A DNA stretch of 64,000 nt from an uncultured Acidimicrobiales bacterium. Its GTDB lineage: Bacteria; Actinomycetota; Acidimicrobiia; Acidimicrobiales; DATKAS01. Both the position numbers and the translations under genes were made by a program. The stretch spans positions 413,938 through 477,937 of the forward strand of contig CAWDJB010000003.1 in NCBI GenBank assembly GCA_963802505.1, read 5' to 3'. Below the pieces are notes generated by a model. The model searched no databases and was not told the DNA's origin. It worked only from the letters and a program-made list of their open reading frames with translations. Each line of letters opens with the position of its first letter. The first letter of the stretch is position 1. Positions 9,854 to 36,144 of the stretch are shown piece after piece.

Positions 9854-10341
9854 GCGATCCCCACGCCGACGTCGTCGCGGCCCTCGACGCGCGTGGCGTC
9901 GACTACGAGGTGATGGACTGCGACCCTGACTTCGCCGACACCGCCGCGTTCTGCGAGAAGTACGGCATCTCGCCCGACGAGTCGGCCAACACGATCCTCG
10001 TCGTCGGCAAGTCAGAGCCGCGGCGCTATGTCGCCTGCGTCGTGCTCGCCACCACGCGACTCGACGTGAACGGCATCGTGCGGCAGCGCCTCGGCGTGAA
10101 GAAGGCGTCGTTCGCCTCCGCCGACGAGACCCGCGACATGACCGGCATGTTGATCGGCGGCGTCACGCCGATCGCGCTGCCTGACGGCGTTCCGATCTGG
10201 GTCGACGCCGCGGTGATGACGCCCGCGTCGATCGTGCTCGGCGGCGGCGACCGGTCGACGAAGCTGCGGATGACGCCGGCCGCGCTCGTGTCTCTGCCGA
10301 ACGTCGAGGTCGTCGACGACCTGGCCAAGTCCGTCACCTGA
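9850..10341 (+). CDS. YbaK/EbsC-like aminoacyl-tRNA editing domain protein
   Basis: ATG 9850 overlaps the thpR stop (ATGA). 163 aa with ...MLIGGVTPIALP... typical of YbaK-type deacylases. By-eye call. Confidence 0.6.
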   Translation: MSDPHADVVAALDARGVDYEVMDCDPDFADTAAFCEKYGISPDESANTILVVGKSEPRRYVACVVLATTRLDVNGIVRQRLGVKKASFASADETRDMTGMLIGGVTPIALPDGVPIWVDAAVMTPASIVLGGGDRSTKLRMTPAALVSLPNVEVVDDLAKSVT

Positions 10342-10345
10342 CACT

Positions 10346-11575
10346 TCACGCCGCGCGCCTTCGCGGCGGCCCGGTTGTCATCACTTCCCCGTTCGGCAGT
10401 GTGACCACGAGGATGCGGTTGGGCGCGAGCTCGACTACCCACCCGGCGTCATGGATCGCGGTGTGGTGCCGCGCGCACACGGGCAAGAGGTTGTCGAGGT
10501 CGGTGCGCCCGCCGTGTCGCCACCAGCGGACATGGTGGACCTTGCAGTGATCGAACCGCACGGGGCAGTCGGGGATCGCGCAGGTCGGGTAGATCGCTCG
10601 GAGTGCTCTTCGTTGGGCGGCGTTGGCGAGCCGGGTGGTGCGACCCAAGTCGAGCCGGCCGGGCGCGTGCACGATCGCGCCGTCACGGACCACGACCGTG
10701 TGGACGCCGGCGGTTGGCGCCATCTCGGTGAGCACGCTGATGGGGAGCTCGACGGGGATACCCCAGTCGACCGTGGGACCGCGATCGTCGCTGGCTCGGG
10801 TATCGACCACGACGATCATCTCGGGTCGCCCGGCTCGCCCGGCGCCGCGTTCGCAGAGGTCGAGCAGGGCGAGGGCCTGCAAGTACGCGTTCTTCTCGAC
10901 GGGGTCTGTGGGGCAGCCGTCGGGGGTCTTGTCCGCGAACAGCTCGGACATCCGTGCCTTGAGCCGGTTGAGGAACCCGAGACCGCGCAGCGGGTCGAGC
11001 TTGCCCCAGAACTCGACCATCCCCGACGCCGGGTCGACGCGATGGTTGAACCGGATCGCTCGCTGCTGACGCTCGAGGCGTGCCTTGCCGTCGTCGCCGG
11101 CGAGGCGCTCTGCCTCGGCGCGCACCATCCGCCCGAACTCCTCGGCCGACGTGCGGGCCGCGGCCTCGGCGAGCGCGTCGATGCGCTCGGCCAGCTCTTT
11201 GCGCTTTGCTCCTTCAGCGTTGCGTAGCGCCTTGCCCGCGGCGTCGACGTGCTCGCCCGAGACCTCGCCGTTGTCGAGCGCGCTCGCGAGCTTGGGTGTC
11301 TCGTTCAGCGCCTCTTGGCGTCGCAACGCCCTCTTTGCCGACCGTTGAGAGCTCCGCGCCGCCTTGGCCATCGGCTTCTCGGGGACCGGGCTGTGCCGGC
11401 GCATGAACCCCGCGAGCGCGACCTCCCGCCCGTCGCACCACCGCCGGATCGCCGCGAGATCGGCGACCGCCTGCACGACCCGACTGCGATCGCTCGACTC
11501 GTCGACCGACTCGACCGACCGCACCAGCCCCACGACTTCGTCGACCCGCACTTCCACCTCCCGCGCGCCTACCAA
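10346..11575 (-). CDS. DUF222 / HNH endonuclease domain protein (REP13E12-like family)
   Basis: C-terminal HNH region CAIPDCPVRFDHCKVHHVRWWRHGGRTDLDNLLPVCARHHTAIHDAGW. The long helical N-terminus is typical of actinobacterial DUF222 proteins. Stop lies 4 nt after the ybaK stop. Start is TTG 11575 or GTG 11551. Confidence 0.8.
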   Translation of the reverse strand: MVGAREVEVRVDEVVGLVRSVESVDESSDRSRVVQAVADLAAIRRWCDGREVALAGFMRRHSPVPEKPMAKAARSSQRSAKRALRRQEALNETPKLASALDNGEVSGEHVDAAGKALRNAEGAKRKELAERIDALAEAAARTSAEEFGRMVRAEAERLAGDDGKARLERQQRAIRFNHRVDPASGMVEFWGKLDPLRGLGFLNRLKARMSELFADKTPDGCPTDPVEKNAYLQALALLDLCERGAGRAGRPEMIVVVDTRASDDRGPTVDWGIPVELPISVLTEMAPTAGVHTVVVRDGAIVHAPGRLDLGRTTRLANAAQRRALRAIYPTCAIPDCPVRFDHCKVHHVRWWRHGGRTDLDNLLPVCARHHTAIHDAGWVVELAPNRILVVTLPNGEVMTTGPPRRRAA

Positions 11576-11601
11576 ACCGACACAACGAGGGAAGTGAGAT
11601 C

Positions 11602-11625
11602 ACCCTACAGAGGGGGTGTGACATT
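11602..11625 (-). promoter_or_regulatory. TGTCACAC-N8-TAGGGT promoter-like element upstream of the HNH gene (copy 1 of the 20-nt inverted repeat)
   Basis: The minus strand reads AATGTCACACCCCCTCTGTAGGGT. The first 20 nt are identical to 45788-45807 upstream of recA. Confidence 0.45.
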
Positions 11626-11662
11626 AAGTCCGAGATCGAGTGGCGAAGAGTGAAGCAGTCTC

Positions 11663-12208
11663 CTAGAAGAAGGTGCTGAGGTTGCGGGCGAGGAGCACGG
11701 TCTGCTCGAGCAAGATCACGCGCTTCGCGATCTTGAACGAATCGCCGTCGCGGCGCAGCGTGTCTTGACGGCTGCCGACCCATGCGTCTTCTTCCGACTT
11801 CAACCGGGTGCGGTAGATGTGGAAGTTCGACTCGATGTCGAGCTCGTCGCCACGGTTGTCGACGACCCGCACGTTGTGCACCATGTGCCGCGTGCGTGAC
11901 GGCGGGTCCTCGGCCCACGACGTGCCCGATGCGAACTTCAGCGCACGGCCGTTGAGCATCATCTTGTCGTCGTCGAAGTAGGCCATCTCGCCCGGCTTCG
12001 TGAACTCCTTGTCGAGCTCGCGCTTCGAGCGAGTGCGGCGGATCGGCATGAAGTAGTGGGTGTCGTCGGCGAAGAGCTCGACCCACTCCGCGTACTTGTG
12101 TGCGTCGAGCAGCGCCGCTTCCTCGTAATAGAACTGCTCGACCTCGTACTGCGTCACCAGCTTGGCCAGCAGCCGGGGGTCGACCATCGCTTCCTGATCA
12201 ATCGCCAT
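11663..12208 (-). CDS. Ring-hydroxylating oxygenase beta subunit (beta-2, type A)
   Basis: 181 aa. [30 protein letters not shown] and C-terminal LSTFF. Downstream of alpha-2 on the minus strand. Confidence 0.85.
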   Translation of the reverse strand: MAIDQEAMVDPRLLAKLVTQYEVEQFYYEEAALLDAHKYAEWVELFADDTHYFMPIRRTRSKRELDKEFTKPGEMAYFDDDKMMLNGRALKFASGTSWAEDPPSRTRHMVHNVRVVDNRGDELDIESNFHIYRTRLKSEEDAWVGSRQDTLRRDGDSFKIAKRVILLEQTVLLARNLSTFF

Positions 12209-12235
12209 GTCGATCGCTCTCCTCGGTCGGATCGG

Positions 12236-13600
12236 TCACATGTACTCGCCGGGGGTGGTGTTCGCCCGGAGAGTCTCCCAGTCGCTGCCCTTCATCCACT
12301 CTGCCCACGCGGCGTAGGTCCACAGCTGCGCGTGCTCGTTCGTCGTGCCCTCGATGCGGGCGCGACCCTGTTCGTCGCGGAGGATCTTTCCGCGGCCGAG
12401 ATCCATGCGCAGCAGCTGCGGGATACGCCGGCTCGCCATGCCGCGCGTCTGCATCGTGCTCTGCGACCAGTTCTCTCCGTCTTCCTGCTCGAGCAGGCCG
12501 GCGGGGCCGAAGATGTGGTTCGCCACCATGACGTCGACGGCTCGCCGTTCGGGCGGGTTGTCTCGGTCGGTGAAGCTGTACCACCAGATCTCGGTCTGGT
12601 TCGGCGAGCGGGGGATGCGCAACGAGAGCTGCGTCGTGCCGGTCGCGACCCAGCTGTTCGGGAAGATGTTCGGGTGACCGGCGACCATCGCACCGACAGG
12701 GCCGAGCGCTTCCTGGATGTGCGGCCGGTCCCGCCACGAGTGGTCGATGAGACCACCGGCATCGCCGATGCCCTTCACGTTCGGCCCGCCGATGGCGTGT
12801 CCGTACTCGGCGACGAACGTCATCTCGTCGATGCCCGACCCACCGAGCCCCGCGGGGATCGGAAGCTCTTCACCCGTCGTCGTCTGCGCGCCGCCGACGT
12901 CGACGGTCACGCTCGGATCGGGCGGTATGATGCCCGACGCCATCGCCGACATGTGCGTGACCTGCGGGTGGTACCAGTCGAAGAGGTTGTCGACCGCGAA
13001 TTTCCAGTTGCAGTCGATGATGAACTTCTGGATGCCGGGGATGACCTCGATGTTCCCCCGCAGCGCGATCAGGTCGATGCCCAGCCGGCCGGTCGGGCCG
13101 AGGTAGTCCTCGAGCCGAGGGGCCGTCGGGTCGAGCGTCGCGAAGACGAAGCCGTGGTAGCTCTCGAGCTGCGCGACCTGACGAAGGCCAAGTTGGCTCA
13201 TGTCGAGATCGCCCTTGTAGAACTTGTCGATCCCGGGGACGCCGATGAGGTTGCCGCCGATGTCGTACGACCACCCGTGGTAGGTGCACATGAAGGCTTT
13301 GGTGTTGCCTTCGTCGGCTCGGCACACCGCGTTGCCGCGGTGCATGCACGTGTTCAGGAGGCCCCTGACGCTGCCGTCCTTCTGCCGGACCGCAAGGACG
13401 TTGTCGAGCCCCATGGGTGTCTCGACGAAGTCGCCGGCCTTGGGGATCTGCGACTCGTGGCAGAGGAACTGCCACGCTCGGCCGAAGATGAGCTCCATCT
13501 CGGCATCGAAGATGTCGGGATCGCTGAAGATCCGGCGGTCGATCTCACCACGCTCGACCGACACGAGACCCTCGACGCTGAACGTTTCGGTGATCGCCAT
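12236..13600 (-). CDS. Rieske ring-hydroxylating oxygenase alpha subunit (alpha-2, type A)
   Basis: 454 aa. CMH-x17-CTYH Rieske motif and NWKFAVDNLFDWYHPQVTH iron motif. Close paralogue of alpha-1 and alpha-5. Confidence 0.9.
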   Translation of the reverse strand: MAITETFSVEGLVSVERGEIDRRIFSDPDIFDAEMELIFGRAWQFLCHESQIPKAGDFVETPMGLDNVLAVRQKDGSVRGLLNTCMHRGNAVCRADEGNTKAFMCTYHGWSYDIGGNLIGVPGIDKFYKGDLDMSQLGLRQVAQLESYHGFVFATLDPTAPRLEDYLGPTGRLGIDLIALRGNIEVIPGIQKFIIDCNWKFAVDNLFDWYHPQVTHMSAMASGIIPPDPSVTVDVGGAQTTTGEELPIPAGLGGSGIDEMTFVAEYGHAIGGPNVKGIGDAGGLIDHSWRDRPHIQEALGPVGAMVAGHPNIFPNSWVATGTTQLSLRIPRSPNQTEIWWYSFTDRDNPPERRAVDVMVANHIFGPAGLLEQEDGENWSQSTMQTRGMASRRIPQLLRMDLGRGKILRDEQGRARIEGTTNEHAQLWTYAAWAEWMKGSDWETLRANTTPGEYM

Positions 13601-13679
13601 GAGCGCACGATCTCACGAGACGCGGCGCCGATGCGGCACCGCCGTTCCCCTAGATGAGACGGATTCCAGCCGGGACCAG

Positions 13680-14366
13680 CTACCGGCGGTACGGCATCTT
13701 GGCCGAGTTGGCCTTGCCCTCCTCCCAGTGCTCCCAGTGCAACACCTCGGACAGCGGCCGGCGGGTGGTCGGGCCGTAGCGCTGCTTGTCGGGGTAGCCG
13801 AGCGGGATGAACGCCACCGGCTCGATCTCGTCCGGGATCCCGAGGATCTTCTTGGTGGCGTCGACCGACGGGCCACCGAGCAGGCCGGTGAGCACGGCGC
13901 CGAGGCCGACACCGCGCGCGGCGAGCAGCAGGTTCTGGACAGCCGGCCAGATCGACCCGTAGGCGCCTGGGCTTCCCGGCATCGTCAGGCACGCCACGAT
14001 CCACACCGGGACGTCCTCGATGTGCTCGACCATCACCTTGAGCTTCGGAAACGGGGACGGGTCGCCGGGTTGGGCCCGGCTCACCGCCGCTTGATACATC
14101 CCGTCGAAGTTCCTTCGGGCGATCGCCGAGAGCTCCGCCCTCGTCTCGGCATCACGCACCGCGACGAACGCCCAGGGCTGGCTGTTGCCGCCACTCGGTG
14201 CCTTCGTCGCGGCTTCGATCACCTTCTCGATGAGATCGTCGGGCACCGGATCGGGCTTGAAGCTCCGAATCGCGCGCTGGCTGTAGATCGCGTCGAAGAG
14301 CCCGATCTCGTCCATGGTGTCAATGAAGATGCCATCGTCCCTCCGGTCAACGGAGAGGTGCCGCAC
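13680..14366 (-). CDS. Nitroreductase-family flavoprotein
   Basis: AIYSQRAIRSFKPDPVPDDLIEKVIEAATKAPSGGNSQPWAFV is a typical nitroreductase N-terminus. Met18 (14315) is an alternative start. Confidence 0.75.
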   Translation of the reverse strand: MRHLSVDRRDDGIFIDTMDEIGLFDAIYSQRAIRSFKPDPVPDDLIEKVIEAATKAPSGGNSQPWAFVAVRDAETRAELSAIARRNFDGMYQAAVSRAQPGDPSPFPKLKVMVEHIEDVPVWIVACLTMPGSPGAYGSIWPAVQNLLLAARGVGLGAVLTGLLGGPSVDATKKILGIPDEIEPVAFIPLGYPDKQRYGPTTRRPLSEVLHWEHWEEGKANSAKMPYRR

Positions 14367-14398
14367 TGCAGAACGTCGGCGCGCGGTCCCGATGCGGG

Positions 14399-15403
14399 AT
14401 GCGGCACAGTGCTCTCGTGCCGCTCGAACCGGAGGAGATCGCGGCGTTCGTCGACCTCGAACGCGGCACCGTCGCCGGACGAGCGTTCACGGACGACCTC
14501 GTCTACGACATCGAGCTCGAGCGAGTGTTCGCCCGCGCGTGGTGCTTCCTCTGCGACGCGGAGGGATTCACCACACCAGGTCAGTTCGTGAGCACGTTCA
14601 CGGGCGAGGATCCGGTGACGGTTGTGCGGCAGACCGATGGCACCTCGAAGGTCATGTTGAACTCATGTCGCCATCGCGGCTTGCCGGTATGTGGGCCCGC
14701 CGGCGAGGCGCAGCGGCTCACCTGCGGCTACCACGGATGGACCTACGACCTCGACGGGCGGCTCGTGGGCGTGCTCGACGGGGACGAGGACTTCCGACGA
14801 TGGGCGCAGGACCGACGGCTCGCGCTGATCCCGATCACTCGCACCACGGAGGTGGGCGGGCTCCTGTTCGGCACGTGGGATGCGGGTTGGGCGCCGTCGC
14901 TGGAGGCTGAGGGTTCAGCGCTTGCGGACGCGATCGGGGCCGTCCGCGCCGCGGGGCCGCTCGAGCGCCTTCCGAAGCCAGTCCGGCTCGACGAGAACTG
15001 GAAGGTGGCGGTCGAGTCGCTCGGCGCAGTTGCCGAGAGCGAAGACGGCGTGACCCTGTTTCCCTCGTTTTTCGCATTGCCTTCCCGCGGGCTCGTCGCC
15101 GCGGTGCACCCGAAGGGACCTCACGCGTGCGAGGTCGCGCTCTGGGCGTCCGCGCAGGCACCGTTCGACGCGAGCGATCGTCTTCGCTCCGTGATCGAAA
15201 CGGAACTGGAACCGAAGGGTCCGAGGACCGTCGTGCTCAACCTGAAGCCTCGCGCGACGGAGATCGATGGGTGCCCGGCGGAGGACATGCCGGTCGCACG
15301 GCCTCCGAGACACATCGATGCTCGGGCGACTGCAGACCTCTACCGCGCGTGGATCGAGCACATGGTCGACGACAGTCCGTTGGCGGGGCTGATCACGACA
15401 TAG
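14399..15403 (+). CDS. Rieske-domain oxygenase-alpha-like protein with a degenerate catalytic domain
   Basis: Intact Rieske motif CRH-x16-CGYH. The position aligned with NWKF..D..D.YH....H reads ENWKVAVESLGAVAESEDG, with no His ligands. Only 334 aa and no adjacent beta subunit. Confidence 0.7.
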   Translation: MRHSALVPLEPEEIAAFVDLERGTVAGRAFTDDLVYDIELERVFARAWCFLCDAEGFTTPGQFVSTFTGEDPVTVVRQTDGTSKVMLNSCRHRGLPVCGPAGEAQRLTCGYHGWTYDLDGRLVGVLDGDEDFRRWAQDRRLALIPITRTTEVGGLLFGTWDAGWAPSLEAEGSALADAIGAVRAAGPLERLPKPVRLDENWKVAVESLGAVAESEDGVTLFPSFFALPSRGLVAAVHPKGPHACEVALWASAQAPFDASDRLRSVIETELEPKGPRTVVLNLKPRATEIDGCPAEDMPVARPPRHIDARATADLYRAWIEHMVDDSPLAGLITT

Positions 15404-15480
15404 CTGACGATGCGGGCCCTGATTCCGTTCAGCAGAACCAGACCATTGGCCCGTTTCTCGCCCAGCGGTACACAGACACG

Positions 15481-15505
15481 GTCGGCAGACACTGTCGGCA
15501 GACAC
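15481..15505 (+). repeat. Tandem direct repeat GTCGGCAGACAC x2 (13-nt period) in the spacer upstream of the Liv-type ABC operon
   Basis: GTCGGCAGACAC at 15481-15492 and 15494-15505, separated by one T. Lies about 20 nt upstream of the predicted GTG 15524 start. Confidence 0.8.
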
Positions 15506-15523
15506 CCGGGGGGACAACGACAC

Positions 15524-16306
15524 GTGAGCTCGAACGCGATCGAGGTCACAGGGATGAGCGTGCGATACGGCACGCTCACCGCGCTCGCCGACTTCGACTT
15601 CGTCGCTGCGGACCGTTCGGTCACCGCGGTGATCGGCCCGAACGGCTCGGGCAAGACGACGTTCCTGAACGCGCTGACCGGCGCGGTTCCATATCAGACC
15701 GGTCGCGTCTCGATTCTCGGCGACTACATCGAGAAGGCGACACCCGGCGTGATGCACCGCGCTGGTCTCAGCCGTACCTTCCAGAACCTCGACCTCATGG
15801 ACGATCTCAGTGTCGAGGACAACGTGCGTCTCGGGGCAGCGTGCGATTCGCGGGCCACGCTCATCGAGGCCGCGCTGGGCCTTCCGCGCTCACACACAGA
15901 GACGCGCCAGCGCAAGGCGAACGCGAGGGCCGCGCTCGAGCAGCTCGACATCGCCAACCTGTCGCGCCTCGCGGTCAGCGAGCTCTCCTACGGCATGCGC
16001 CGGCGCGTCGAAGTGGCTCGCGCGCTGGCGAGCTCGCCCCGGATCCTGCTGCTCGACGAGCCCACCGCGGGCATGGGTCCGAACGAAAGCGCCGAGTTCG
16101 CGGCGCTGGTGCTGCACCTCCGCGACGAGCTCGGCCTGACGGTCGTCTTGATCGAGCACGACATGAGCGTCGTGCGCGCCACTGCGCAGCAGGTGTATGT
16201 GCTGTCCGCGGGGCGAGACATCGCTCACGGCGTTCCGGGCATCGTGCTCGACGAGCCGGAAGTGAAGCGCGTGTACCTCGGGGACTTCGAGGTGGCCAGT
16301 GCTTGA
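15524..16306 (+). CDS. Branched-chain-amino-acid-type ABC transporter ATP-binding protein (LivG-like)
   Basis: Walker A GPNGSGKTT, signature LSYGMRRRVEVARAL, Walker B ILLLDEP. Start placed at GTG 15524, preceded by a G-rich RBS. Confidence 0.8.
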   Translation: MSSNAIEVTGMSVRYGTLTALADFDFVAADRSVTAVIGPNGSGKTTFLNALTGAVPYQTGRVSILGDYIEKATPGVMHRAGLSRTFQNLDLMDDLSVEDNVRLGAACDSRATLIEAALGLPRSHTETRQRKANARAALEQLDIANLSRLAVSELSYGMRRRVEVARALASSPRILLLDEPTAGMGPNESAEFAALVLHLRDELGLTVVLIEHDMSVVRATAQQVYVLSAGRDIAHGVPGIVLDEPEVKRVYLGDFEVASA

Positions 16307-17003
16307 GGTGAGCGACCTTTCCATGGCGTACGGACCGATCGAGGTCGTGCACAACCTCTGCCTGACCGTTGGCGACGGCGAGATCGTCACGATCCTCGGG
16401 CGCAACGGCGCCGGCAAGACCACCACCCTCAACGGCATCGCGGGAATCGTGAAGCCGAAGAGCGGTCAGATCAGCCTCGACGGCAAGTCGCTCGCCAAGC
16501 AGAAGGTGAGCGGCATCGCCCGCCTCGGAGTGGCCTACGTGCCCGAAGGTCGGGGCGTTTTTCCCACCCTCACTGTCTGGGAGAACCTCGCGTCGGCGGC
16601 CTATGGACACGGGCTCGGTCGGCGCGCGGCAGGGACGGAGATCAAGAGGGCGGCCGCGTACTTCCCGGTGCTCGAAGAGCGCATGAAGCAGCGCGCCGGA
16701 ACGATGTCAGGCGGCGAGCAGCAGATGCTCGCCCTCGCACGTGCGCTCGTGTCGCGGCCGCGTCTGCTGCTCATCGACGAGCCCGGCCTCGGCCTCGCGC
16801 CAGTGCTCGTCTCACGGCTCTACGAGAACCTCGTGCAGCTCAACCAAGACGGCCTCAGCATCCTGCTGGTCGAGCAGTACGTGGACCTCGCGATCAACAC
16901 GGCAAAGCGTGCCTATGTGCTCGAGAAAGGGCGTGTCGCGCACGAAGGCGCATGCGAAGCAATCAAGGCAAGCAAGGAGCTGGTCAGCGCGTACATCGGC
17001 TGA
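16299..17003 (+). CDS. Branched-chain-amino-acid-type ABC transporter ATP-binding protein (LivF-like)
   Basis: MLEVSDLSMAYG..., GRNGAGKTT, MSGGEQQMLALARAL, LLLIDEP. 8-nt overlap with the LivG-like gene. Confidence 0.85.
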   Translation: MLEVSDLSMAYGPIEVVHNLCLTVGDGEIVTILGRNGAGKTTTLNGIAGIVKPKSGQISLDGKSLAKQKVSGIARLGVAYVPEGRGVFPTLTVWENLASAAYGHGLGRRAAGTEIKRAAAYFPVLEERMKQRAGTMSGGEQQMLALARALVSRPRLLLIDEPGLGLAPVLVSRLYENLVQLNQDGLSILLVEQYVDLAINTAKRAYVLEKGRVAHEGACEAIKASKELVSAYIG

Positions 17004-17011
17004 CCCCAACC

Positions 17012-18475
17012 ATGGGGGGAACATTGCGTAGACGTCCAGCACGGCGTACCGCCTCGAGGGGCGTTGCCATCGGGTCAGTGCTGTTGTCGGTCGGTTTGCT
17101 CGCCGCTGCGTGTGGTGACGACAGCGACAGCGGGGCAACCGCGACGACAGCCGCGGCCTCTGCCACGACTGCAGCGGGTGCCGCGACGACCGCGGCGACG
17201 GCGGGCGCCGGGTCGACGACGACCGTCTCGATCGATCCCACGACTCTCACGAACGGCCAAGGAGTCACCGACGACACGATCACCATCGGCGTGACGATGG
17301 ACCAGAGCGGGCCCTTCGCGATCCTCGCCGGCCCGATCAAGGCAGCGTTCGACGCCAAGATTTCGTTCCTCAACGACCAGGGCGGCGTGCTCGGTCGTCA
17401 GATCAAGATCATCTACTACGACGACAAGAGCGATCCCGCGCAGGTGCTGCAGAACTTCAAGCGTCTGTGGGAGCAGGACAAGGTGTTCGGCATCTACGTC
17501 GCGAACATCGTCGGTCCGCCGCTCGACTACGTCGCGCAGAAGAACGTCGCCACGACGCTGCTCGGCGGCCCGCCGGCAGTGTTCTCGTCGAAGTACCCGA
17601 CGATCTTCCCGACGGGCTCGATCACCCCGGCATGGAACGCGCAGGCGGACTACGCGGTGGTGAACGTGCTCGGCATGAAGCCGAAGGTCGTCGCCGTGAG
17701 CTACTTGCCCTACGAGGAGCCGGTGCTCGACTTCATCGAGAACGCGTGGAAGACGCTCGGCGCCGAGACGGTGATCATGGATCCATGGCCCGGCGGTCCC
17801 GCTGATCCCTGCGACGCCTTCGTCCTGAAGTACAAGGACGCCAACGTCGACTACTGGGACATGCACGCGACGAACTTCTTGAGCTGCATCCCGGCCGAGG
17901 TCAAGGCGGGTTGGTCGCCGCCCATGGGCCAAGGCGGTCCGAGCACGAGCTCGCTCGACCTGTCCTCATTCATCGGGAAGCCGATGGCCGACCTGGGCGT
18001 CATCGCCGGCGCACCGACGACGCAGGCCGACGGCAGCCCGGTGCACACCTCGCCGACGCCGGCGACGAAGGAGTACGTCGACTCGATGACGAAGTACCAG
18101 GCGGAGTTCACGAACTCCCACGACATCAACGACTGGGCCCCGCAGCTCGCCTACATGGGCGGCACGTGGTTCGCCGACGGGATCGTGGGATCCGCGCAGC
18201 TCACCGGAGGCATCAGCCCTGAGGGTCTGATCCAGTGGGCCCAGACCGTCAAGAACTGGGACCCGGGCCTTGCGGAGCCGGTGAAGAGCATGGCGCCGGA
18301 TTGCAAGACCGGAAACGACTCGACGGTGTGGGGCAAGTGGACGTGGGACGAGGCGAACCAGCGCCTGAAGATGGTGCCGTTCGCGCCGAGCCCAGGGGAG
18401 CCGATGATCAACAGCGACTTCCTCGGTGTCGACGAGTGCTACCTCACGCAGATGGCGGACGAGTTTTTCTCGTAG
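17012..18475 (+). CDS. Liv-type (periplasmic binding protein type I) ABC substrate-binding lipoprotein
   Basis: Signal and lipobox LLSVGLLAAAC, followed by a Thr/Ala-rich linker. ATG 17012 is chosen. Operon context with the Liv-type ATPases and permease. Confidence 0.75.
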   Translation: MGGTLRRRPARRTASRGVAIGSVLLSVGLLAAACGDDSDSGATATTAAASATTAAGAATTAATAGAGSTTTVSIDPTTLTNGQGVTDDTITIGVTMDQSGPFAILAGPIKAAFDAKISFLNDQGGVLGRQIKIIYYDDKSDPAQVLQNFKRLWEQDKVFGIYVANIVGPPLDYVAQKNVATTLLGGPPAVFSSKYPTIFPTGSITPAWNAQADYAVVNVLGMKPKVVAVSYLPYEEPVLDFIENAWKTLGAETVIMDPWPGGPADPCDAFVLKYKDANVDYWDMHATNFLSCIPAEVKAGWSPPMGQGGPSTSSLDLSSFIGKPMADLGVIAGAPTTQADGSPVHTSPTPATKEYVDSMTKYQAEFTNSHDINDWAPQLAYMGGTWFADGIVGSAQLTGGISPEGLIQWAQTVKNWDPGLAEPVKSMAPDCKTGNDSTVWGKWTWDEANQRLKMVPFAPSPGEPMINSDFLGVDECYLTQMADEFFS

Positions 18476-18574
18476 TCAGCCACCAAGTCGAGCGGCCTGG
18501 GCGCCCCCACCACCGCCCAGGCCGCTCCTCGATCAAGAGCTCAATCGATCGGCGATCAACGGAGAGAGGAGCGC

Positions 18575-20575
18575 ATGGACCTCTACAGGGCAGCCATCGT
18601 CAGCGGCATCGCCGTCGGTGGCACCTACGCGCTCGTCGCGGTCGGCATCACGCAGATCTTCTCGGTCACGCGTGTCCTGAACTTCGCCCACGCGGGGTTC
18701 ACGCTGTGGGGTGCGTACCTCTACGCGCAGTTCACCTATGAGTGGGGCTGGCCGGTGGGATGGTCAGCGGCGCTGACGATCGCGCTCGTCGGGATCATGG
18801 GCCTCGCGTCCGAGCTGTTGGTCTTCCGGTACGCGAACCGTGCGACGCCGGTCAACCGGATCATCCTCACGTTCGGGCTGTTCCTGCTCTTGAGCGCGCT
18901 CGCGGCCAAGGTCTGGGGCTTCGAGGTCAAGGCCGCAGTGCCTCTCTTCCCCACCGGCAGCTTCTCGGTGCTCGGCACGAACGTCAGCTGGCAGCAATTC
19001 GCCAACCTGTGCGCCGTGGTGCTCGTCGTCGTGGGCATCGGGGCATTCCTCAGGTTCACGCGTCTCGGCCTGCAGACCAGGGCGATGGCCGAAGACAACA
19101 CGGTCGCCGAGCTCATGGCGATCTCGAAGAACCAGATCGGCATGTTGAACTGGGGCCTCGCCGCCATGGTGGGTGGCATGGCCGGCGTGCTCGCAGCGTC
19201 GTTGCAGCCGTTCACGGGCTCGGTCTTCCTCCAGTACTTCCTGATCGCCCTGACCGCGACCCTCGTCGGCGGGCTGCGGTCCCTGTGGCTGACTGCGGTC
19301 GGCGGCCTCGCGATCGGCGTGATCCTGAGCGTGACGCAGGTGTGGAGCAGCACGATCGGGTTGGGCACGCTCTTCGTGTTCCTCGGCGTCGTGGCGCTCG
19401 TGCTCTTGCGGAAGCACTGGCCGTCGGAGCTCTCGAAGATCGGCTGGTCACGTCCTCAGATCAGCAAGGCGAACCCCGGATGGATGGTCGCGCGCTTCGT
19501 GCTGCTGGGCGGCTGGCTCTGGCTCATCCTCGCGATCTACCGTGCCGACTTCTGGGGCCAGACCGGTGCATTGATCCTCGTGTACACGGTGGCGGTGTTC
19601 TCGCTCGTCCCGTTGATCGGATGGACGGGCCAGGTGAGCCTTGCGCAAGGCGGCTTCATGGCGCTGGGCGCGCTCGCGATGAACGAGGCGTACGACTACT
19701 ACCACCTCCCCATGGCGGTGGCGGTACTGATCGCGATCCTCGTCGGCACGTTCGGCGGAGCGCTGGTCGGACTGATCTGCTACCGGCTCTCGTTCGTGCA
19801 GACCGCGATCGTCACGCTCGCGTTCACCGGCGTTGTCACGCAGTGGTTCATGTACTCCCATTGGTTCCATGCGCCTTCGGCGCGCGTGAGCATGCTCGTG
19901 CCCACGTTCCTCGACTCTGGGCGCAGCCTCTTCCTCGGCTTCGTGGTCGTGACCCTGCTCGTGATGATCGTCCTCTACAACGTGCGGCGATCCCAGTGGG
20001 GCATCTCGTTCATCGGCGTGCGCACCGCGCCGAGCATGGCCAAACACTTCGGTCTCAACCCGCCCGTCGTGCGCATCATGGCCTTCTCGCTGTCGGGTGC
20101 GATCGCCGCTGTCGCGGGGGTGCTCTACCTCGCGCTCGTCGGCATCACCGACGCCTCCTCGTTCGGAGTCGGGTTGTCGCTCCAGGTGCTGCTGTATGCG
20201 GTCGCCAGCGGGGTCGGCAGCCTCGTCGGTCCGCTGATCGGCCCGCTCGCGTTCCTGGCCATTCCGCAGGCGCTCAACCTGCAGAAGTACGGCTCGACGG
20301 TGTGGCCCGACATCCTCGGCGGCCTCGCGATCATCCAGCTCATGGCGACGCGGCCCGACGGCATGCTCAGCATCTTGCGGCGCCCGCCGCACCTACCCGA
20401 GACCCGCGTCGAGCGCGCGCTGCACCACGTGACGCGCTACGTGCCGTTCGTCAGCCACGGCGGGCCCGAGTCGCCGCCACCGCCGCCCGAGGCCGTGGCT
20501 GACGCCGATGACATTCCTGAACCCACCCGGGAGGAACACGAAGATGTCGACGATCTCGTCGTTGGTCCGCGCTGA
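18575..20575 (+). CDS. Fused LivH-LivM-type ABC permease (two permease domains in one 666-aa polypeptide)
   Basis: Highly hydrophobic throughout. The first ~290 aa are LivH-like, the rest LivM-like. An acidic/Pro-rich C-terminal tail of about 60 aa overlaps the alpha-3 start by 32 nt. Confidence 0.75.
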   Translation: MDLYRAAIVSGIAVGGTYALVAVGITQIFSVTRVLNFAHAGFTLWGAYLYAQFTYEWGWPVGWSAALTIALVGIMGLASELLVFRYANRATPVNRIILTFGLFLLLSALAAKVWGFEVKAAVPLFPTGSFSVLGTNVSWQQFANLCAVVLVVVGIGAFLRFTRLGLQTRAMAEDNTVAELMAISKNQIGMLNWGLAAMVGGMAGVLAASLQPFTGSVFLQYFLIALTATLVGGLRSLWLTAVGGLAIGVILSVTQVWSSTIGLGTLFVFLGVVALVLLRKHWPSELSKIGWSRPQISKANPGWMVARFVLLGGWLWLILAIYRADFWGQTGALILVYTVAVFSLVPLIGWTGQVSLAQGGFMALGALAMNEAYDYYHLPMAVAVLIAILVGTFGGALVGLICYRLSFVQTAIVTLAFTGVVTQWFMYSHWFHAPSARVSMLVPTFLDSGRSLFLGFVVVTLLVMIVLYNVRRSQWGISFIGVRTAPSMAKHFGLNPPVVRIMAFSLSGAIAAVAGVLYLALVGITDASSFGVGLSLQVLLYAVASGVGSLVGPLIGPLAFLAIPQALNLQKYGSTVWPDILGGLAIIQLMATRPDGMLSILRRPPHLPETRVERALHHVTRYVPFVSHGGPESPPPPPEAVADADDIPEPTREEHEDVDDLVVGPR

Positions 20576-21899
20576 CGAAGGCCTCATCGATCGTCGGATC
20601 TTCTCCGACGAGGCGATCTACGAGCAGGAGCTCGAGCAGATCTTCGCTCGGTGCTGGCTGTTCCTCTGCCACGAGAGCCAGATCCCCGAGGCCGGCGACT
20701 TCTTCTCCACGACGATGGGGGAGGACCCGATCCTCGTCGTGCGCCAGAAGGACGGCACGGTCGGCGCGTTCCTCAACTCGTGCCGCCACCGCGGCATGAA
20801 GGTCTGCCGGGCTGACCTCGGCAACACCAAGGGCTTCACGTGCACGTACCACGGGTGGTCCTACGGCATCGACGGCGCACTCGTGTCGGTGCCCAACCTC
20901 GAGGACGGCTATTACAACGAGCTCGACGTCGCTCAGTGGGGCCTCGTGCCGGTCACCCAGGTGGACAGCTACAAGGGCCTCGTCTTCGCGTCGTGGGATC
21001 CGACCGCGCCGCCGCTGCTCGAGTACATCGGAGACTTCCGCTTCTACTTCGACGCGATGTTCGACCGCGATCCACTCGGCACCGAGGTGATCGGCGGTGT
21101 GCACAAGTGGGTGTTCAAGGGGAACTGGAAGTTCGCCGCCGAGCAGTTCTGCTCGGACATGTACCACGCGCCGATCAGTCATGCCTCTGCGGTCATGGCG
21201 ATGGCCTCCGACGCGGAGCTCACCCCCGAGGAAGCCGCAGATACCTGGACGCCTGGCGGTCGCCAGTTCACGTCGGCGAGCGGCCACGGCACGGGCTTCT
21301 TCATCAGCCCGATGGAACGCAATGGCGGCGTGCGGTTCATGGAGAAGACCTTGCGGGACTACTACGTGAGCAGCCAAGCGCGCTACGCAGAGCGCCTCGG
21401 CGAGGCGCGCGTGCAAGGCCCGATGAACGCGCACGCGACGTTGTTTCCGTCGTTCTCCTATCTGCCCGGCACCAACACGCTGCGGGTGTGGCATCCCCGG
21501 GGACCGGGGCAGATGGAGGTCTACTCGTGGATCATCGTCGAGAAGTCGATGCCACCCGAGGTGAAGGAGGCGCAGCGCCTCTTCACGCTGCGCACCTTCT
21601 CCCCGTCGGGACTGCTCGAGCAGGACGACGGTGAGAACTGGGGTGAGATCCAGAAGGTGCTGAAGGGCACCGTGCAGCGGCGGTACGCGTTCAACTACCA
21701 GATGGGCCTCGGCCACGAGCGCGAAGACGTCGAGCACTACCCGGGCCGCCTGAGCTACGTGATGAGCGAGGGTGCAGCGCGGGGCTTCTACCGTCGGTAC
21801 ACCCAGCTCATGGACTCCGACGTGTTCCCGAGCGATCTCCCCACGCGTCCCGCGCTGAACGACAAGGAGCTCACGCCGATGCCCAGCCCGGCGGGGTGA
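20544..21899 (+). CDS. Rieske ring-hydroxylating oxygenase alpha subunit (alpha-3, type B, biphenyl/naphthalene-family-like)
   Basis: Start at ATG 20544 ([13 protein letters not shown]). CRH-x17-CTYH and [20 protein letters not shown]. No adjacent beta subunit. Confidence 0.9.
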   Translation: MSTISSLVRADEGLIDRRIFSDEAIYEQELEQIFARCWLFLCHESQIPEAGDFFSTTMGEDPILVVRQKDGTVGAFLNSCRHRGMKVCRADLGNTKGFTCTYHGWSYGIDGALVSVPNLEDGYYNELDVAQWGLVPVTQVDSYKGLVFASWDPTAPPLLEYIGDFRFYFDAMFDRDPLGTEVIGGVHKWVFKGNWKFAAEQFCSDMYHAPISHASAVMAMASDAELTPEEAADTWTPGGRQFTSASGHGTGFFISPMERNGGVRFMEKTLRDYYVSSQARYAERLGEARVQGPMNAHATLFPSFSYLPGTNTLRVWHPRGPGQMEVYSWIIVEKSMPPEVKEAQRLFTLRTFSPSGLLEQDDGENWGEIQKVLKGTVQRRYAFNYQMGLGHEREDVEHYPGRLSYVMSEGAARGFYRRYTQLMDSDVFPSDLPTRPALNDKELTPMPSPAG

Positions 21900-21900
21900 C

Positions 21901-22863
21901 GTGAAGCAGCGGTCGCTCGGCTCATCGGGCATCTCGGTCTCGGTCGTCGGACTGGGGGGGAACACGTTCGGCCCGCCGCGCATCGACGAGGCAGCCACAG
22001 TCGAGGTCATCCACGCTGCGCTCGATCTCGGCATCAACTTCGTCGACACTGCGATCGTGTACGGGCAGGGCGAGTCCGAGCGCTACATCGCGACAGCGCT
22101 GAAGGATCGGCGCGACGAGATGGTGCTCGCCACGAAATTTCACCTGATGGGCCTCGGCGACGAGAAGCCCGCCGATCGCATCCGCGCGCACGTCGACGAG
22201 AGCCTGTCGAAGCTGGGGACCGATCGCATCGAGCTGTATCAGATCCACATGCCGAACCCGGCTGTGCCCGCCGCGGAGATCCTCGGGACGCTCGCAGAGC
22301 TCGTCGCCGCGGGCAAGGTGCGCGAGATCGGGTGCTCGAACTACACCTCGTGGCGGCTCGTCGAGTCGTGCTTGGAAGCCGATCGGCTCGGTGTGCCGCG
22401 ATTCGCGACGGTGCAGAACCACTACAGCCTCCTGAACCGCCAGAGCGAGCAGGAGCTGGTGTCCGCGTGCCGTGCGTACGGCGTCGGGTTGATCCCGTAT
22501 CACCCGCTCGCCGGAGGGTTCCTCACCGGCAAGTACCGCAAGGGTGAACCGCCACCGCCGGGCACCCGGGGAGCCGCGGGCAGCCCGATCGTCACGAAGA
22601 TGAGCAACGACCGCAACTGGGAGATCGTCGCCTCACTCGAGGAGTGGGCCGCCGATCACGGTCACACCGTGGGCGAGCTCGCGATCGCATGGCTCGTCGC
22701 GAACGAGGTCGTGACGTCGGTGATCGCCGGGGTGAGCAACGTCGCCCAGATCGAGGCGAACGCTGCCGGAGGGGGATGGGAGCTGACTGAGGCCGAGAAG
22801 GCCGAGGTCGACGCGCTCGCGACGACGGGCCTCGAGGAGCCGGTCGAGCCGCCCGCGCGGTAG
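21901..22863 (+). CDS. Aldo/keto reductase (AKR-1)
   Basis: 320 aa. GINFVDTAIVYGQGESE, LGTDRIELYQIHMPN, IGCSNY, IPYHPLAGGFLTGKY. Confidence 0.85.
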   Translation: MKQRSLGSSGISVSVVGLGGNTFGPPRIDEAATVEVIHAALDLGINFVDTAIVYGQGESERYIATALKDRRDEMVLATKFHLMGLGDEKPADRIRAHVDESLSKLGTDRIELYQIHMPNPAVPAAEILGTLAELVAAGKVREIGCSNYTSWRLVESCLEADRLGVPRFATVQNHYSLLNRQSEQELVSACRAYGVGLIPYHPLAGGFLTGKYRKGEPPPPGTRGAAGSPIVTKMSNDRNWEIVASLEEWAADHGHTVGELAIAWLVANEVVTSVIAGVSNVAQIEANAAGGGWELTEAEKAEVDALATTGLEEPVEPPAR

Positions 22864-22930
22864 CGGCCGAGGTTCCGCCTAACGGACTCCCGCTGTGGGT
22901 CGCTCGTGCGAAAGTGCGGATACTGAGCCG

Positions 22931-24262
22931 ATGACGATCTCGTCGCTGGTCCGCGCGGACGAAGGGCTCATCGATCGCCGGATCTTCTCGGACCAAGACA
23001 TCTACGAGCAGGAGCTCGAGCGGATCTTCGCCCGGTGCTGGCTGTTCCTCTGCCACGAGAGCCAGATCCCTGAGCCCGGCGACTTCTTCGCCACGACGAT
23101 GGGCGAGGACCCGATCCTCGTCGTCCGGCAGAAGGACGGCACGGTCGGGGCGTTCCTCAACTCGTGCCGCCACCGCGGCATGAAGGTGTGCCGGGCTGAC
23201 CTCGGCAACTCGAAGGGCTTCACGTGCACCTATCACGGGTGGGCGTACGGCATCGACGGCGCACTCGTGTCGGTGCCCAACCTCGAAGACGGGTACTACA
23301 ACGAGCTCGACGTCGCCCAATGGGGGCTCGTGCCGGTCACCCAGGTCTCGAGCTACAAGGAGTTCGTCTTCGCGACGTGGGACCCGACCACGCCGCCGCT
23401 CGAGGAGTACCTCGGCGGCTACAGGTTCTACTTCGACGCGTTCTGCGATCGGATGCCGGGAGGCAGCGAGGTCATCGGCGGCCTCCACAAGTGGATCTTC
23501 AAAGGAAACTGGAAGTTCGCCGCCGAGCAGTTCTGCTCGGACAACTACCACGCGCCCATCAGTCACGCCTCGGCGTTCATGGCGATGATGATGGACATGT
23601 CGCCCGAGGAGATGGCCGAGGCGGCGGCTGGCCTCCAGCACATCGAGGGCTTGCAGTACTCCGACCCGAACGGACATGGCACCGGGTTCCTGGTCGAGGA
23701 CTTCCTCAACAGCTTCTTCACCAAGACGCTGCCGCCGAAGCTCGTCGACTACTACCGCGAGGTCATGCCGACGATGATCGAGCATCTCGGCGCGGACCGC
23801 GCCGGCGGGCCGATCACCGCTCACGCGACGATCTTCCCGAACACGTCGTTCCTGCCGACGACGAACACGCTGCGCGTGTGGCATCCCCGCGGGCCGGACG
23901 CGATGGAGGTCTACGCGTGGATCATCGTCGACAAGGCGATGCCGCCCGAGGTGAAGGAAGCGCAACGGCTGCAGACGATTCGCACGTTCTCGCCCTCGGG
24001 TCTGCTCGAGCAGGACGACGGCGAGAACTGGGGTGAGATCCAGAAGGTGCTGAAGGGCACCGTGCAGAAGCGGTACGCGTTCAACTACCAGATGGGTCTC
24101 GGACACGACCGCGTCGACGATCGCTATCCGGGTGACCTCGGATACGTGATGGGCGAGAAGGCGTCGCGCGGCTTCTACCGCCGGTACGCCCAGCTGATGG
24201 ACAGCGACGTGTGGCCGAACGAGCTGCCCGTCGCCGACGAGCAACCAGCAATGGTGAAGTAA
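22931..24262 (+). CDS. Rieske ring-hydroxylating oxygenase alpha subunit (alpha-4, type B; close paralogue of alpha-3)
   Basis: Start ATG 22931 ([12 protein letters not shown]). CRH-x17-CTYH and [20 protein letters not shown]. The N-terminal ~210 aa are nearly identical to alpha-3. Confidence 0.9.
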
Positions 24263-24288
24263 GAGACCGACGCAGAGGGGGAGACACA

Positions 24289-25296
24289 GTGTCGTTGACC
24301 GACGAGGGCATCATCGAGGTCCCGGGGATGATGAGCCGCTGGGTGCGGCTCACGACGGGTGCCAAGGCGCACTACATGACATCGGGCGAGAGCGGCCCGG
24401 CGGTCGTGCTGCTGCACGGCGGCATCATCGGCTCGTCGGGCACCGCGGGCTGGCGCTTCATGGCGCCGTTTCTCGGCGCCAACGGCTTCCGGGTGTACTG
24501 CCCCGACATGCCGGCGTTCGGGCTCACCGAGGACCCATACGACGCGTACGCGTTCGGCGAGGGCGGCCATGCCGACTTCGTGCACGACTTCGTGAACGCG
24601 GTGTGCATCGACCAGTTCCACGTCTCGGGCAACTCGATGGGGTGCTCGAACGCGGTGAACTACGTGACGGCGCATCCGGAGCGCATCCTCAGCTACGCGC
24701 TCATCGCCGGTGGCATCGGCGACATCGTGCCGATGGCCCAGATGATGGCGGCGGATCCGCGACCCGCCGACGCGCGTCCGAACATCATGCAGTTCGACGG
24801 CACTCCCGAGTCGATGCGGGCGATGATGGAGGCGATCATCCATCGCGGCGGCGCGATCAGCGACGACCTCATCACGATGCGCACTTCGGCGGCCAACCAT
24901 CACCGCGAGGCCTACACCAAGCGGATGCAGATGATGATGGCCGAGAACGGACCCGGCGGCACGCCCGACACGAACAAGGCAGCCCGCATGAGCACGAAGG
25001 GTCGCTTCGACAAGATGACGATCCCCGGCATCTACATGTACGGGCGCCAGGACGTGCTGATCTCGCACGAGGCCGGCTACCTCCAGGAAGACGCTCTCCC
25101 CAACGTGCAGTTCTTCTATCCGGACGAGACCGGTCATCAGGGCCAGACCGATCAGCCCGACCTGTTCAATCAGGTCTTCCTCGAGTTCTTCCGCGACGGC
25201 AAGGTCTCGTGGGAGACGGCGCAGGCCGCGGGCATCTCCGATCGCCGTGCCCCGAACCCCGATCTCGTCGCCGTCCCGGCCGGCGTGTCGGCCTGA
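24289..25296 (+). CDS. Alpha/beta-fold hydrolase, meta-cleavage-product hydrolase-like (H2)
   Basis: GTG 24289 preceded by GGGGGA. LLHGGIIGSS, nucleophile elbow GNSMGC, His region ETGHQGQ. Sits between alpha-4 and beta-3. Confidence 0.8.
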   Translation: MSLTDEGIIEVPGMMSRWVRLTTGAKAHYMTSGESGPAVVLLHGGIIGSSGTAGWRFMAPFLGANGFRVYCPDMPAFGLTEDPYDAYAFGEGGHADFVHDFVNAVCIDQFHVSGNSMGCSNAVNYVTAHPERILSYALIAGGIGDIVPMAQMMAADPRPADARPNIMQFDGTPESMRAMMEAIIHRGGAISDDLITMRTSAANHHREAYTKRMQMMMAENGPGGTPDTNKAARMSTKGRFDKMTIPGIYMYGRQDVLISHEAGYLQEDALPNVQFFYPDETGHQGQTDQPDLFNQVFLEFFRDGKVSWETAQAAGISDRRAPNPDLVAVPAGVSA

Positions 25297-25305
25297 GGAG
25301 TCGCC

Positions 25306-25890
25306 GTGTCCATCGATCAGGAAGCCGTACAGGAAGCACCCGCGATCCCCAGGGTCGTGCTCGAGGTCGACGCCGGCCTCCAGTTCGAGATCGAGCAGTT
25401 CCTCTATCTCGAGGCTCGGCTCCTGGACGATCGAAGGTTCGACGACTGGCTCCTTCTCTTCGCGGACGACATCCACTACTGGATGCCGACTCGGTACAAC
25501 CGCCTCCTCCGCGAGCTCGACAAGGAGCTCGCGGCGCCGAACGAGGTCGCGAACTTCGACGAGGACAAGCGCTCGCTCGCGCAGCGTGTCTTCCGCATCA
25601 ACACCGGCATGGCGTGGGCGGAGGATCCCCCCTCGCGGACGCGACACCTCGTGTGCAATGTCTGGGTGCGGCCGACGGAGGCTGGCCCCACCGAGAGAGG
25701 CGAGGAGTACGACGTGCAGTCGGCGTTCCTCACCTACCGCAACCGCGGCGACACCGAAGTCGACGTGTGGGCAGGCCGCCGCGACGACCTGCTTCGGCGC
25801 ATCGCTCCCGGCACGTGGCAGATCGCCCGCCGCAAGATCACGATCGACCAATCGACGATCCTGTCCAAGAACCTCAGCGTCTTCTTCTAG
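25306..25890 (+). CDS. Ring-hydroxylating oxygenase beta subunit (beta-3, type B)
   Basis: 194 aa. [42 protein letters not shown]-terminal LSVFF. Confidence 0.85.
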   Translation: MSIDQEAVQEAPAIPRVVLEVDAGLQFEIEQFLYLEARLLDDRRFDDWLLLFADDIHYWMPTRYNRLLRELDKELAAPNEVANFDEDKRSLAQRVFRINTGMAWAEDPPSRTRHLVCNVWVRPTEAGPTERGEEYDVQSAFLTYRNRGDTEVDVWAGRRDDLLRRIAPGTWQIARRKITIDQSTILSKNLSVFF

Positions 25891-25921
25891 TTCTCAGATC
25901 CAGCAGCCTGGAGGAACTCAC

Positions 25922-26800: not shown

Positions 26801-26822
26801 CGCTGACGGTCCTTCCCCCCGC

Positions 26823-28363: not shown

Positions 28364-28425
28364 GGCGTTCCGGCACACGAAACGCGGTCTTCGTCGTCGG
28401 CACTGCCCGCGCCCATCGTTGCGAC

Positions 28426-29447: not shown

Positions 29448-29508
29448 CCGTTCCGGCGCTCGGCACGCGAGGGCACGCCCTGCCCCCAGCGGGCCTTAAC
29501 GTCCTGTC

Positions 29509-30348: not shown

Positions 30349-30363
30349 ACGATCGGAGTTGCC

Positions 30364-31720: not shown

Positions 31721-31738
31721 GCCGAGACAGGAGCCGAC

Positions 31739-32278: not shown

Positions 32279-32282
32279 CCGC

Positions 32283-32332
32283 ACCGTTTGCTCACTCGAC
32301 CACGTCTGAGGTGGGTCCCGTGAGCAAACGGT
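32283..32332 (+). other. Perfect 13-bp inverted repeat (stem-loop) spanning the beta-4 / E1-alpha junction
   Basis: ACCGTTTGCTCAC (32283-32295) and GTGAGCAAACGGT (32320-32332), with a 24-nt loop. The right arm contains candidate start GTG 32320. The loop contains GAGGTGGG and GTG 32311. No U-tract follows. Confidence 0.7.
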
Positions 32333-33327: not shown

Positions 33328-33345
33328 GCTCCATGGCTGAGCTCC
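33320..33345 (+). repeat. Tandem 13-bp duplication ATGGCTGAGCTCC x2 at the E1-alpha stop / E1-beta start
   Basis: Copy 1 is 33320-33332 and contains TGA 33325-33327. Copy 2 is 33333-33345 and supplies the in-frame E1-beta ATG 33333. Confidence 0.95.
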
Positions 33346-34313: not shown

Positions 34314-34390
34314 CCGTGCTGGCCTGGGCCGATCCGCCCTGCGGAACGAGCATCTGGTGATCGGCGTCGCCGAGCCCGCACTCTGACGTC

Positions 34391-34702: not shown

Positions 34703-34722
34703 CGGTACCTGAGGAGGACCCA

Positions 34723-36048: not shown

Positions 36049-36066
36049 ACGCCGACTGACAAAAAT

Positions 36067-36095: not shown

Positions 36096-36144
36096 GGGGG
36101 CATACGCTCCGTTCCGGAGAGCGGAATCGGGGGGATCCCGCTCG

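Follow-up and report, generated by a model that had tools for sequence, protein, structure and literature searches.

The two copies of a 20-nt sequence (AATGTCACACCCCCTCTGTA) that lie in inverted orientation around a catabolic gene block are, with a probability of roughly 0.85, each the Acidimicrobiia version of the PafBC (RecA-NDp) promoter, a predicted element of the damage-regulon class with the form nGTCACACCCC-N5-TAsGGT. The element is of a known kind (PafBC/RecA-NDp promoter) in a class-specific variant, predicted here both at recA and at a mobile 13E12-like HNH cassette, and the bracketing of the block by the two copies is incidental. Both copies are found in a 64,000-nt stretch of DNA from an uncultured Acidimicrobiales bacterium, an origin with which the recA identities agree; the whole stretch is called the window throughout. 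The features on which the argument rests are the following (L081 and L204 are loci of relatives).

45788..45811, plus strand: candidate PafBC-type (RecA-NDp-like) recA promoter, from its sequence and its conservation before recA in relatives
11602..11625, minus strand: candidate PafBC-type HNH promoter, the first bases of the mobile HNH cassette, from its sequence and the relatives L204 and L081
45717..45745, plus strand: canonical sigma-70 recA promoter, TTGACC-17-TACAGT, LexA-controlled, from a sigma-70 scan and an SOS-box match
45871..46929, plus strand: recA, an open reading frame sharing 82-85% identity with the recA genes of Aquihabitans and Ilumatobacteraceae
10346..11551, minus strand: HNH endonuclease gene, assigned to the DUF222-HNH (13E12-like) family through its homologues (Pfam HNH, E 2e-5; homologues with PF02720 and PF01844)
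10346..11625, minus strand: HNH cassette of 1.28 kb (promoter, 5'UTR and ORF), from blastn against L204 and L081
32279..32344, no strand: empty cassette site, intergenic, filled in L081 and L204, from blastn flanks (32345 onward, 32278 downward)
9854..45640 (approximate), no strand: block of about 36 kb between thpR and the recA promoters, absent there in relatives, from synteny

The window holds two exact copies of the 20-mer, one at 45788-45807 on the plus strand and one at 11606-11625 on the minus strand; no third copy was found in the window at up to three mismatches, and none arose in 100 shuffles. A repeat finder extends the pair to 24-nt arms (11602-11625 and 45788-45811, 96% complementary), both of which end in a TAnGGT hexamer, TACGGT (45806-45811) and TAGGGT (11607-11602). 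Comparison of both flanks revealed no similarity between the arms outside these 24 nt. The arms are the sole short near-perfect inverted repeat of the window, the remaining long repeats being diverged paralogous dioxygenase genes, and a search for the promoter motif within the window returned these two sites only. The recA start codon (GTG 45871) lies 63 nt past the 20-mer; on the other side, the first possible HNH start (TTG 11575) lies 27 nt past the hexamer and the database start (GTG 11551) 51 nt past it. The original prediction had been made from the letters of the window, and its description of a 20-mer with an exact reverse complement, of a TAnnnT hexamer following each copy, and of distances of about 60 nt to recA and about 30 nt to the HNH gene agrees with these measurements.

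The published PafBC motif is tGTCgg(N10)tA(N3)T, in which GTC alone is near-invariant (PMC8635444). This triplet is read by Arg46 and Arg50 of PafB, in an element at -23 to -28 of a promoter that has a SigA-type -10 and no -35 (PMC8635444), and promoters of this class are activated by “sigma adaptation” (PMC8635444, PMC6789036, PMC8223512). Both arms read TGTCAC-N10-TA-NNN-T, that is, GTC, then 12 nt, then TAnnnT, and a sigma-70 scan gives no -35/-10 pair at either of them. In the recA arm, GTC (45791-45793) is followed by a C-rich spacer and the -10 hexamer TACGGT (45806-45811), with a predicted start at about 45817-45819 that would leave a 5'UTR of about 53 nt; in the HNH arm, GTC (11622-11620) is followed by the -10 hexamer TAGGGT (11607-11602), with a predicted start at about 11596-11594. 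The geometry of the arms is exactly the published PafBC geometry, and the mismatches are confined to weakly conserved published positions. The bases that follow GTC in the arms (AC ACCCC) do not match the mycobacterial GG (GGTG in an older consensus), but conservation at the positions following GTC reaches 50% at most in published PafBC sites, so that these bases do not strictly define the motif (PMC8635444).

The arms share with the Actinomycetes PafBC promoters (PMC8635444, PMC6789036, PMC8223512) a bipartite structure without a -35, in which GTC near -26 is separated by 12 nt from a SigA-type TAnnnT. Likewise shared are the position before recA and many repair genes, the frequent overlap with the LexA regulon and the presence of a PafB/PafC pair in the clade. 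The two forms differ in their consensus, which is TGTCACACCCC-(CTnCG)-TAsGGT here and tGTCgg-N10-tAnnnT in mycobacteria, so that the upstream element has about 11 conserved bases in Acidimicrobiia and about 6 in published PafBC promoters. The published PafBC alignments do not extend to Acidimicrobiia.

The LexA-controlled recA promoter precedes the right 20-mer by about 45 nt and has a perfect LexA/SOS box (CGAACAGCTGTTCG) at 45722-45735 within the spacer of TTGACC-17-TACAGT. An equivalent LexA box and promoter were seen in six recA upstream regions (L010, L011, L012, L014, L015 and L017). In M. tuberculosis, recA has a LexA-regulated promoter and a RecA/LexA-independent promoter. The window resembles this arrangement in having the LexA-box promoter upstream (45717-45745) and the PafBC-type promoter nearer the gene (45788-45811), and differs from it in spacing and sequences. 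Control of recA by both the LexA and the PafBC pathways has been described (PMC8223512).

The element is conserved upstream of recA across the class. We took recA loci from 80 species, among which 17 Acidimicrobiia loci have readable upstream sequence; in 16 of these 17, nGTCACACCC(C/T)-N5/6-TAsGGT is found 50-145 nt upstream of recA. At the same recA position, the loci of Streptomyces, Micromonospora, Mycobacterium and further Actinomycetes have TGTC(A/G)G(T/A)(G/C)-N8-TA(G/C)CGT, in short form TGTCRGTG-N8-TAGCGT, which is the known PafBC/RecA-NDp promoter. The Acidimicrobiia version and that of the Actinomycetes are joined by intermediates upstream of Actinomycetes recA (TGTCGGACCC and TGTCAGACCC). 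The Firmicutes recA loci among the 80 species have no such element upstream, and the element also stands before recA orthologues in at least 20 metagenome contigs. In the comparison of the same positions in relatives that had been suggested along with the original prediction, the recA element is kept in relatives without the block.

A scan of metagenomes with the pattern TGTCACACCCCNNNNNTANGGT, i.e., TGTCACACCCC-N5-TAnGGT, matched at least 120 contigs, of which about 114 are high-GC (60-78% GC). Among the matches listed, a downstream ORF in the right orientation was present in 107 cases on high-GC contigs, and 68 of these 107 ORFs encode DNA-acting products. The predicted regulon genes among the matches listed are recA (20 cases, 75-87% identical to the window recA), DUF222-HNH (12), ComM-like (5), rpsF/ssb (5), PD-(D/E)XK nucleases (4), radA (3), DNA methylase (3), uvrC (2), UvrD-HRDC helicase (2), RmuC (2) and SbcD-like (2), with one case each of ligA, recN, recC, xseA, tag, radC, a DnaQ-like exonuclease and a helicase. 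Again among the matches listed, the start codon falls 6-8 nt past the hexamer in 38/107 and 4-10 nt past it in 44/107. Since 6-8 nt is the position expected for leaderless transcripts, these cases are strong indirect evidence for the predicted start site.

Because the metagenome pattern fixes 16 bases, a logo drawn from its matches is biased. A rescan of 0.92 Mb of Acidimicrobiia loci with GTC-N12-TAnnnT alone found 19 of 44 additional matches to be at most two mismatches from ACACCCC, where shuffles gave 2.6, and the five free spacer positions favour C-T-n-C-G. The “spacer” is therefore partly conserved class-wide, as CCCC followed by C-T-n-C-G. Two features that the original prediction had singled out as odd for a promoter lose their oddity: the identical 8-nt spacer reflects this partial conservation of a C-rich tract across the class, and the three deviating upstream bases all fall where the published consensus is weak. 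It had also set a motif spread over repair genes against one confined to two sites, and more than 100 unrelated metagenome contigs, mostly with repair genes, speak for the former.

Three further observations come from the same scan. Two families of small proteins (about 75-95 aa) that have no Pfam match are encoded directly behind the motif, one in L162, L110, L146, L098 and L121 and the other in L123 and L168, and both families may be members of the damage regulon. The motif also precedes a gene for a DUF1883-TIR protein (L091) and genes for DrrA-like ABC ATPases (L120 and L175).

Candidate regulators are present in the clade. The search for pafB used a PafB sequence as a seed only, and the match was then checked independently by Pfam, solved structures and database homologues. 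L138, a motif-bearing, Ilumatobacteraceae-like contig, carries a tandem pair in which gene 11794-12717 has WYL and WCX domains (PafB-like) and gene 12687-13664 has HTH_PafC, WYL and WCX domains (PafC); the pair recurs in the 2.6-Mb contig L202, which is likewise motif-bearing and Ilumatobacteraceae-like. Among solved structures, the PafB-like protein matches best with M. smegmatis PafB of the RNA polymerase complex 7P5X (E 3.6e-18, full length), and the homologues found in databases bear the label Ilumatobacteraceae or “proteasome accessory factor B”. Eleven Acidimicrobiia sequences were compared, and all of them have the arginines that correspond to R46 and R50, with one additional residue between the two in the recognition helix of the Acidimicrobiia PafB. 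The neighbouring gene, convergent with pafBC in both L138 and L202, encodes a DnaQ-like exonuclease and has a TGTCACACCCC..TAnGGT site of its own. The look for WYL-domain pafBC genes that had been proposed earlier thus ended with an HTH-WYL-WCX pair in the clade, and the window's own organism presumably carries pafBC as well.

In neither L138 nor L202 do pafA or proteasome genes lie beside pafBC, unlike in the reviewed Actinobacteria, where pafBC is adjacent to pafA (PMC8223512). The pafB-pafC loci (L138 11794-14242, L202 8001-10450) adjoin PGI or a SAM methyltransferase, and a WhiB gene is near pafBC in L202. A literature search found no published description of PafBC in Acidimicrobiia.

The left arm belongs to a mobile unit. 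The HNH gene has its database start at GTG 11551 and encodes 401 aa (P0001), the longest ORF beginning at TTG 11575. Pfam finds no DUF222 domain on the window HNH protein even at E up to 5; DUF222 is recorded on its 82%-identical orthologue and on many homologues. The L204 orthologue (78% identical) is headed by the identical 20-mer and the L081 orthologue (82% identical) by the near-identical AATGTCACACCCCCCTCGTACACT. In blastn, L204 3928-5209 corresponds to window 11625-10346 and L081 9924-11208 to window 11634-10350, so that in L204 the homology starts with the first 20-mer base, in L081 it starts 9 nt before that base, and it stops at the stop codon or at most 4 nt from it. L081 and L204 are collinear with the window over 20.7-41.9 kb, with the HNH unit placed between window coordinates 32345 and 32278. 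From these homology limits and the difference in sites, it follows that the left arm is the 5' end of a 1.28-kb cassette that occupies different sites in relatives. These comparisons show that 13E12-like HNH cassettes carry a predicted damage promoter inside the mobile unit.

The M. tuberculosis 13E12/REP13E12 genes are damage-inducible via RecA_NDp and/or LexA and have been described as insertion elements (PMC3381160). The cassette resembles them in the DUF222 and HNH family of its homologues, its unit of about 1.3 kb, its varying genomic sites and its damage-type promoters (a PafBC-type motif in the window, LexA boxes in L205 and L206, two more distant homologues); it differs in that the window HNH protein falls below the Pfam DUF222 threshold. 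In these two homologues (63-71% identity), a LexA-box promoter (CGAACTAGTGTTCG and CGAACTAACGTTCG; L205 3925-3960, L206 3945-3975) stands where the window, L081 and L204 copies have the PafBC-type motif, which suggests that one gene family switches between two damage regulons.

The surroundings of the cassette offer some minor observations. The HNH ORF ends 2-4 nt from the stop of a convergent gene (window 10342-10345, L081 11216-11218, L204 5210-5211), which is ybaK-like in the window but in L081 and L204 encodes a dioxygenase beta subunit; on its promoter side, the window cassette is separated by 38 nt from the stop of a paralogous gene for such a subunit (11663). This arrangement may reflect a target preference or rearrangement through paralogues. 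Within the empty site, after the stop of the dioxygenase beta-subunit gene and before the start of the E1 dehydrogenase gene, there is a hairpin whose stem measures 12 bp (CCGTTTGCTCAC ... GTGAGCAAACGG), and at the same spot in L204, upstream of the cassette, there are an extra barstar-like gene and a 115-aa gene (3191-3926). Within the HNH 5'UTR, a conserved CACTTCCC(C) is complementary to the Shine-Dalgarno sequence GGGAGGTG (window 11551-11596 on the minus strand, L081 9961-10000, L205 3950-4000), with an additional C:G pair in L205. A possible Shine-Dalgarno-sequestering hairpin in this 5'UTR (CACUUCCC/GGGAGGUG) appears in minimum-energy folds, but the folds are no more stable than those of shuffled sequences (z values of -0.9 to +0.9).

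On the left flank lie rimO, pgsA, cinA, thpR and a ybaK-like gene, followed by the HNH gene on the minus strand; the region 11663-45593 holds ring-hydroxylating dioxygenases, a nitroreductase, meta-cleavage genes, IclR/TetR regulators and ABC transporters; and to the right lie recA, spoVS, miaB, miaA, dapF and hflX, then lexA and nrdR. In eight relatives, rimO-pgsA-cinA-(thpR) is less than 2 kb from recA, from which it follows that about 36 kb have been added here, comprising the ybaK-like gene, the HNH cassette, the aromatic-catabolism and transport block and an ABC exporter. The GC content of the block (0.65-0.69) is like that of its flanks and gives no sign of foreign origin, and a terminator-like hairpin lies at 45618-45632. 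The repeats do not sit exactly at the insert ends, as terminal inverted repeats would; the left one is internal and the right one lies beyond the LexA promoter. The statement in the original prediction that the copies bracket the catabolic block consequently stands only roughly, and not for the exact ends, as the insert reaches about 1.3 kb beyond the left copy and stops about 70-150 nt short of the right one.

Several alternative accounts of the repeat can be weighed against this evidence. In one of them, insertion or inversion of a catabolic island left the copies behind as terminal inverted repeats or as recombination relics (the latter raised with the original prediction), devoid of a regulatory role, and the inverted orientation, the perfect 20-nt match and the position near both ends of a segment of about 36 kb that is missing there in relatives would all suit such an origin. 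We nevertheless regard it as exceedingly improbable, for it is contradicted by recA conservation and by the cassette mapping: the right copy is kept upstream of recA in relatives without the block and lies downstream of the native LexA recA promoter, hence outside the insert, whereas the left copy is embedded in the insert, about 1.3 kb from its end, and moves with the HNH gene to another site in L081 and L204. More than 100 unrelated contigs moreover have the motif upstream of repair genes, and the block genes scanned belong to catabolic, transport and regulator families only, with no integrase or transposase among them. An inversion between the 20-mers was also considered and rejected, as the mapping of L081 and L204 is collinear and the difference is the position of the HNH cassette. 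A less remote, though still improbable, alternative accepts a damage-regulon promoter and assigns it to a factor other than PafBC, such as an alternative/ECF sigma or a different WYL-family activator. WYL damage-response activators (DriD and SiwR) do exist, the extended conserved ACACCCC tract is without a mycobacterial counterpart, and in neither L138 nor L202 is pafBC linked to the Pup-proteasome genes. However, the element is positionally homologous to the proven recA PafBC site, to which the intermediates TGTCGGACCC and TGTCAGACCC connect it, its spacing and SigA-type -10 are identical to the PafBC geometry, PafB/PafC homologues with the GTC-reading arginines are present, and the pafBC neighbour gene has the motif.

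The remaining alternative concerns the identity of the arms: both would be working promoters, and the 20/20 match would come not from independent selection but from an exchange of sequence between recA and the HNH cassette, which lie 34 kb from each other and inverted, by gene conversion or promoter capture. Given 15 fixed motif positions, a chance match at the 7 free positions has a probability of about 1.5e-3. The “AA” prefix occurs in only 4/114 cases and is missing from 35/36 other recA orthologues; it is present in the L204 and L081 HNH orthologues and is typical of the HNH lineage, which suggests that the window recA promoter resembles the cassette promoter. Against an exchange, the common tract is 20-24 nt only and has no flanking similarity, a chance identical pair is not very unlikely if 30-50 regulon promoters per genome are assumed, and the recA relatives compared include none above 87% identity. 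We consider an exchange unlikely, if less so than a factor other than PafBC. Equally speculative is a broader idea, which we would bet against: that DUF222-HNH is a selfish damage-triggered cassette whose first base is that of a PafBC-type promoter, that this promoter has been exchanged with that of recA, that the cassette joins the host regulon by copying or overwriting promoters, and that the family switches between PafBC and LexA.

Altogether, the geometry, the conservation, the regulon, the start positions and the pafBC homologues back the original prediction of a shared PafBC/RecA-NDp-type promoter for recA and the HNH gene, and we infer from homology and context that PafBC is the factor at these predicted promoters. 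Binding by PafBC, induction by damage and the precise start points of transcription are expected at both arms by analogy. As in mycobacteria, DNA damage would lead an ssDNA-loaded PafB-PafC heterodimer to bind the GTC-containing element centred near -26 and to bridge to region 4 of the housekeeping sigma, while sigma region 2 would read the TAnGGT -10, and transcription would begin 6-7 nt past the -10 hexamer. At recA, the gene-proximal PafBC-type promoter would work beside the upstream LexA-repressed sigma-70 promoter. The second 20-mer copy would be the built-in promoter of the 1.28-kb 13E12-type DUF222-HNH cassette, which probably landed at the edge of the block of about 36 kb between thpR and recA, and the outward-facing promoters would be an accident of that landing.

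PafBC “sigma adaptation” has so far been studied almost solely in mycobacteria and a few other Actinomycetes, and the motif evidence indicates that the same promoter logic may operate in the deep-branching, mostly uncultured class Acidimicrobiia. The longer and sharper Acidimicrobiia element, TGTCACACCCC-N5-TAsGGT, should permit damage-regulon prediction in genomes and MAGs, and the many leaderless examples fix the expected start site. The changed element and the changed PafB recognition helix together would form a natural variant pair for the reading of DNA by PafB. Within the window, the repeat is no longer suspected as a mark of an island boundary.

Some other features of the window were observed along the way. 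It contains at least five diverged paralogous dioxygenase alpha/beta sets as well as duplicated hydrolase genes, at 62-93% identity (1122-4272 versus 11663-13600, 20532-24262, 30364-32278, 34714-36048 and 41264-43858). Since some of the dioxygenase paralogues lie outside the block, the catabolic genes are not confined to the “island”. A SpoVS-family gene (47056-47454) comes right after recA, as it does in L001 and L017; in other Actinobacteria, recX is expected at this position. Directly upstream of lexA (60079-60711, minus strand) are two SOS-box-like sites (60720-60758), and about 650 nt off, three tandem boxes (CGAACACCCGTTCT, CGAACAGACGTTCG and CGAACGCATGTTCG) surround a TTGACA at 61406-61464, ahead of that portion of ORF 61245-61823 in which a weak LysM match lies. 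This layout of the lexA region resembles that of M. tuberculosis lexA/Rv2719c (PMC3381160).
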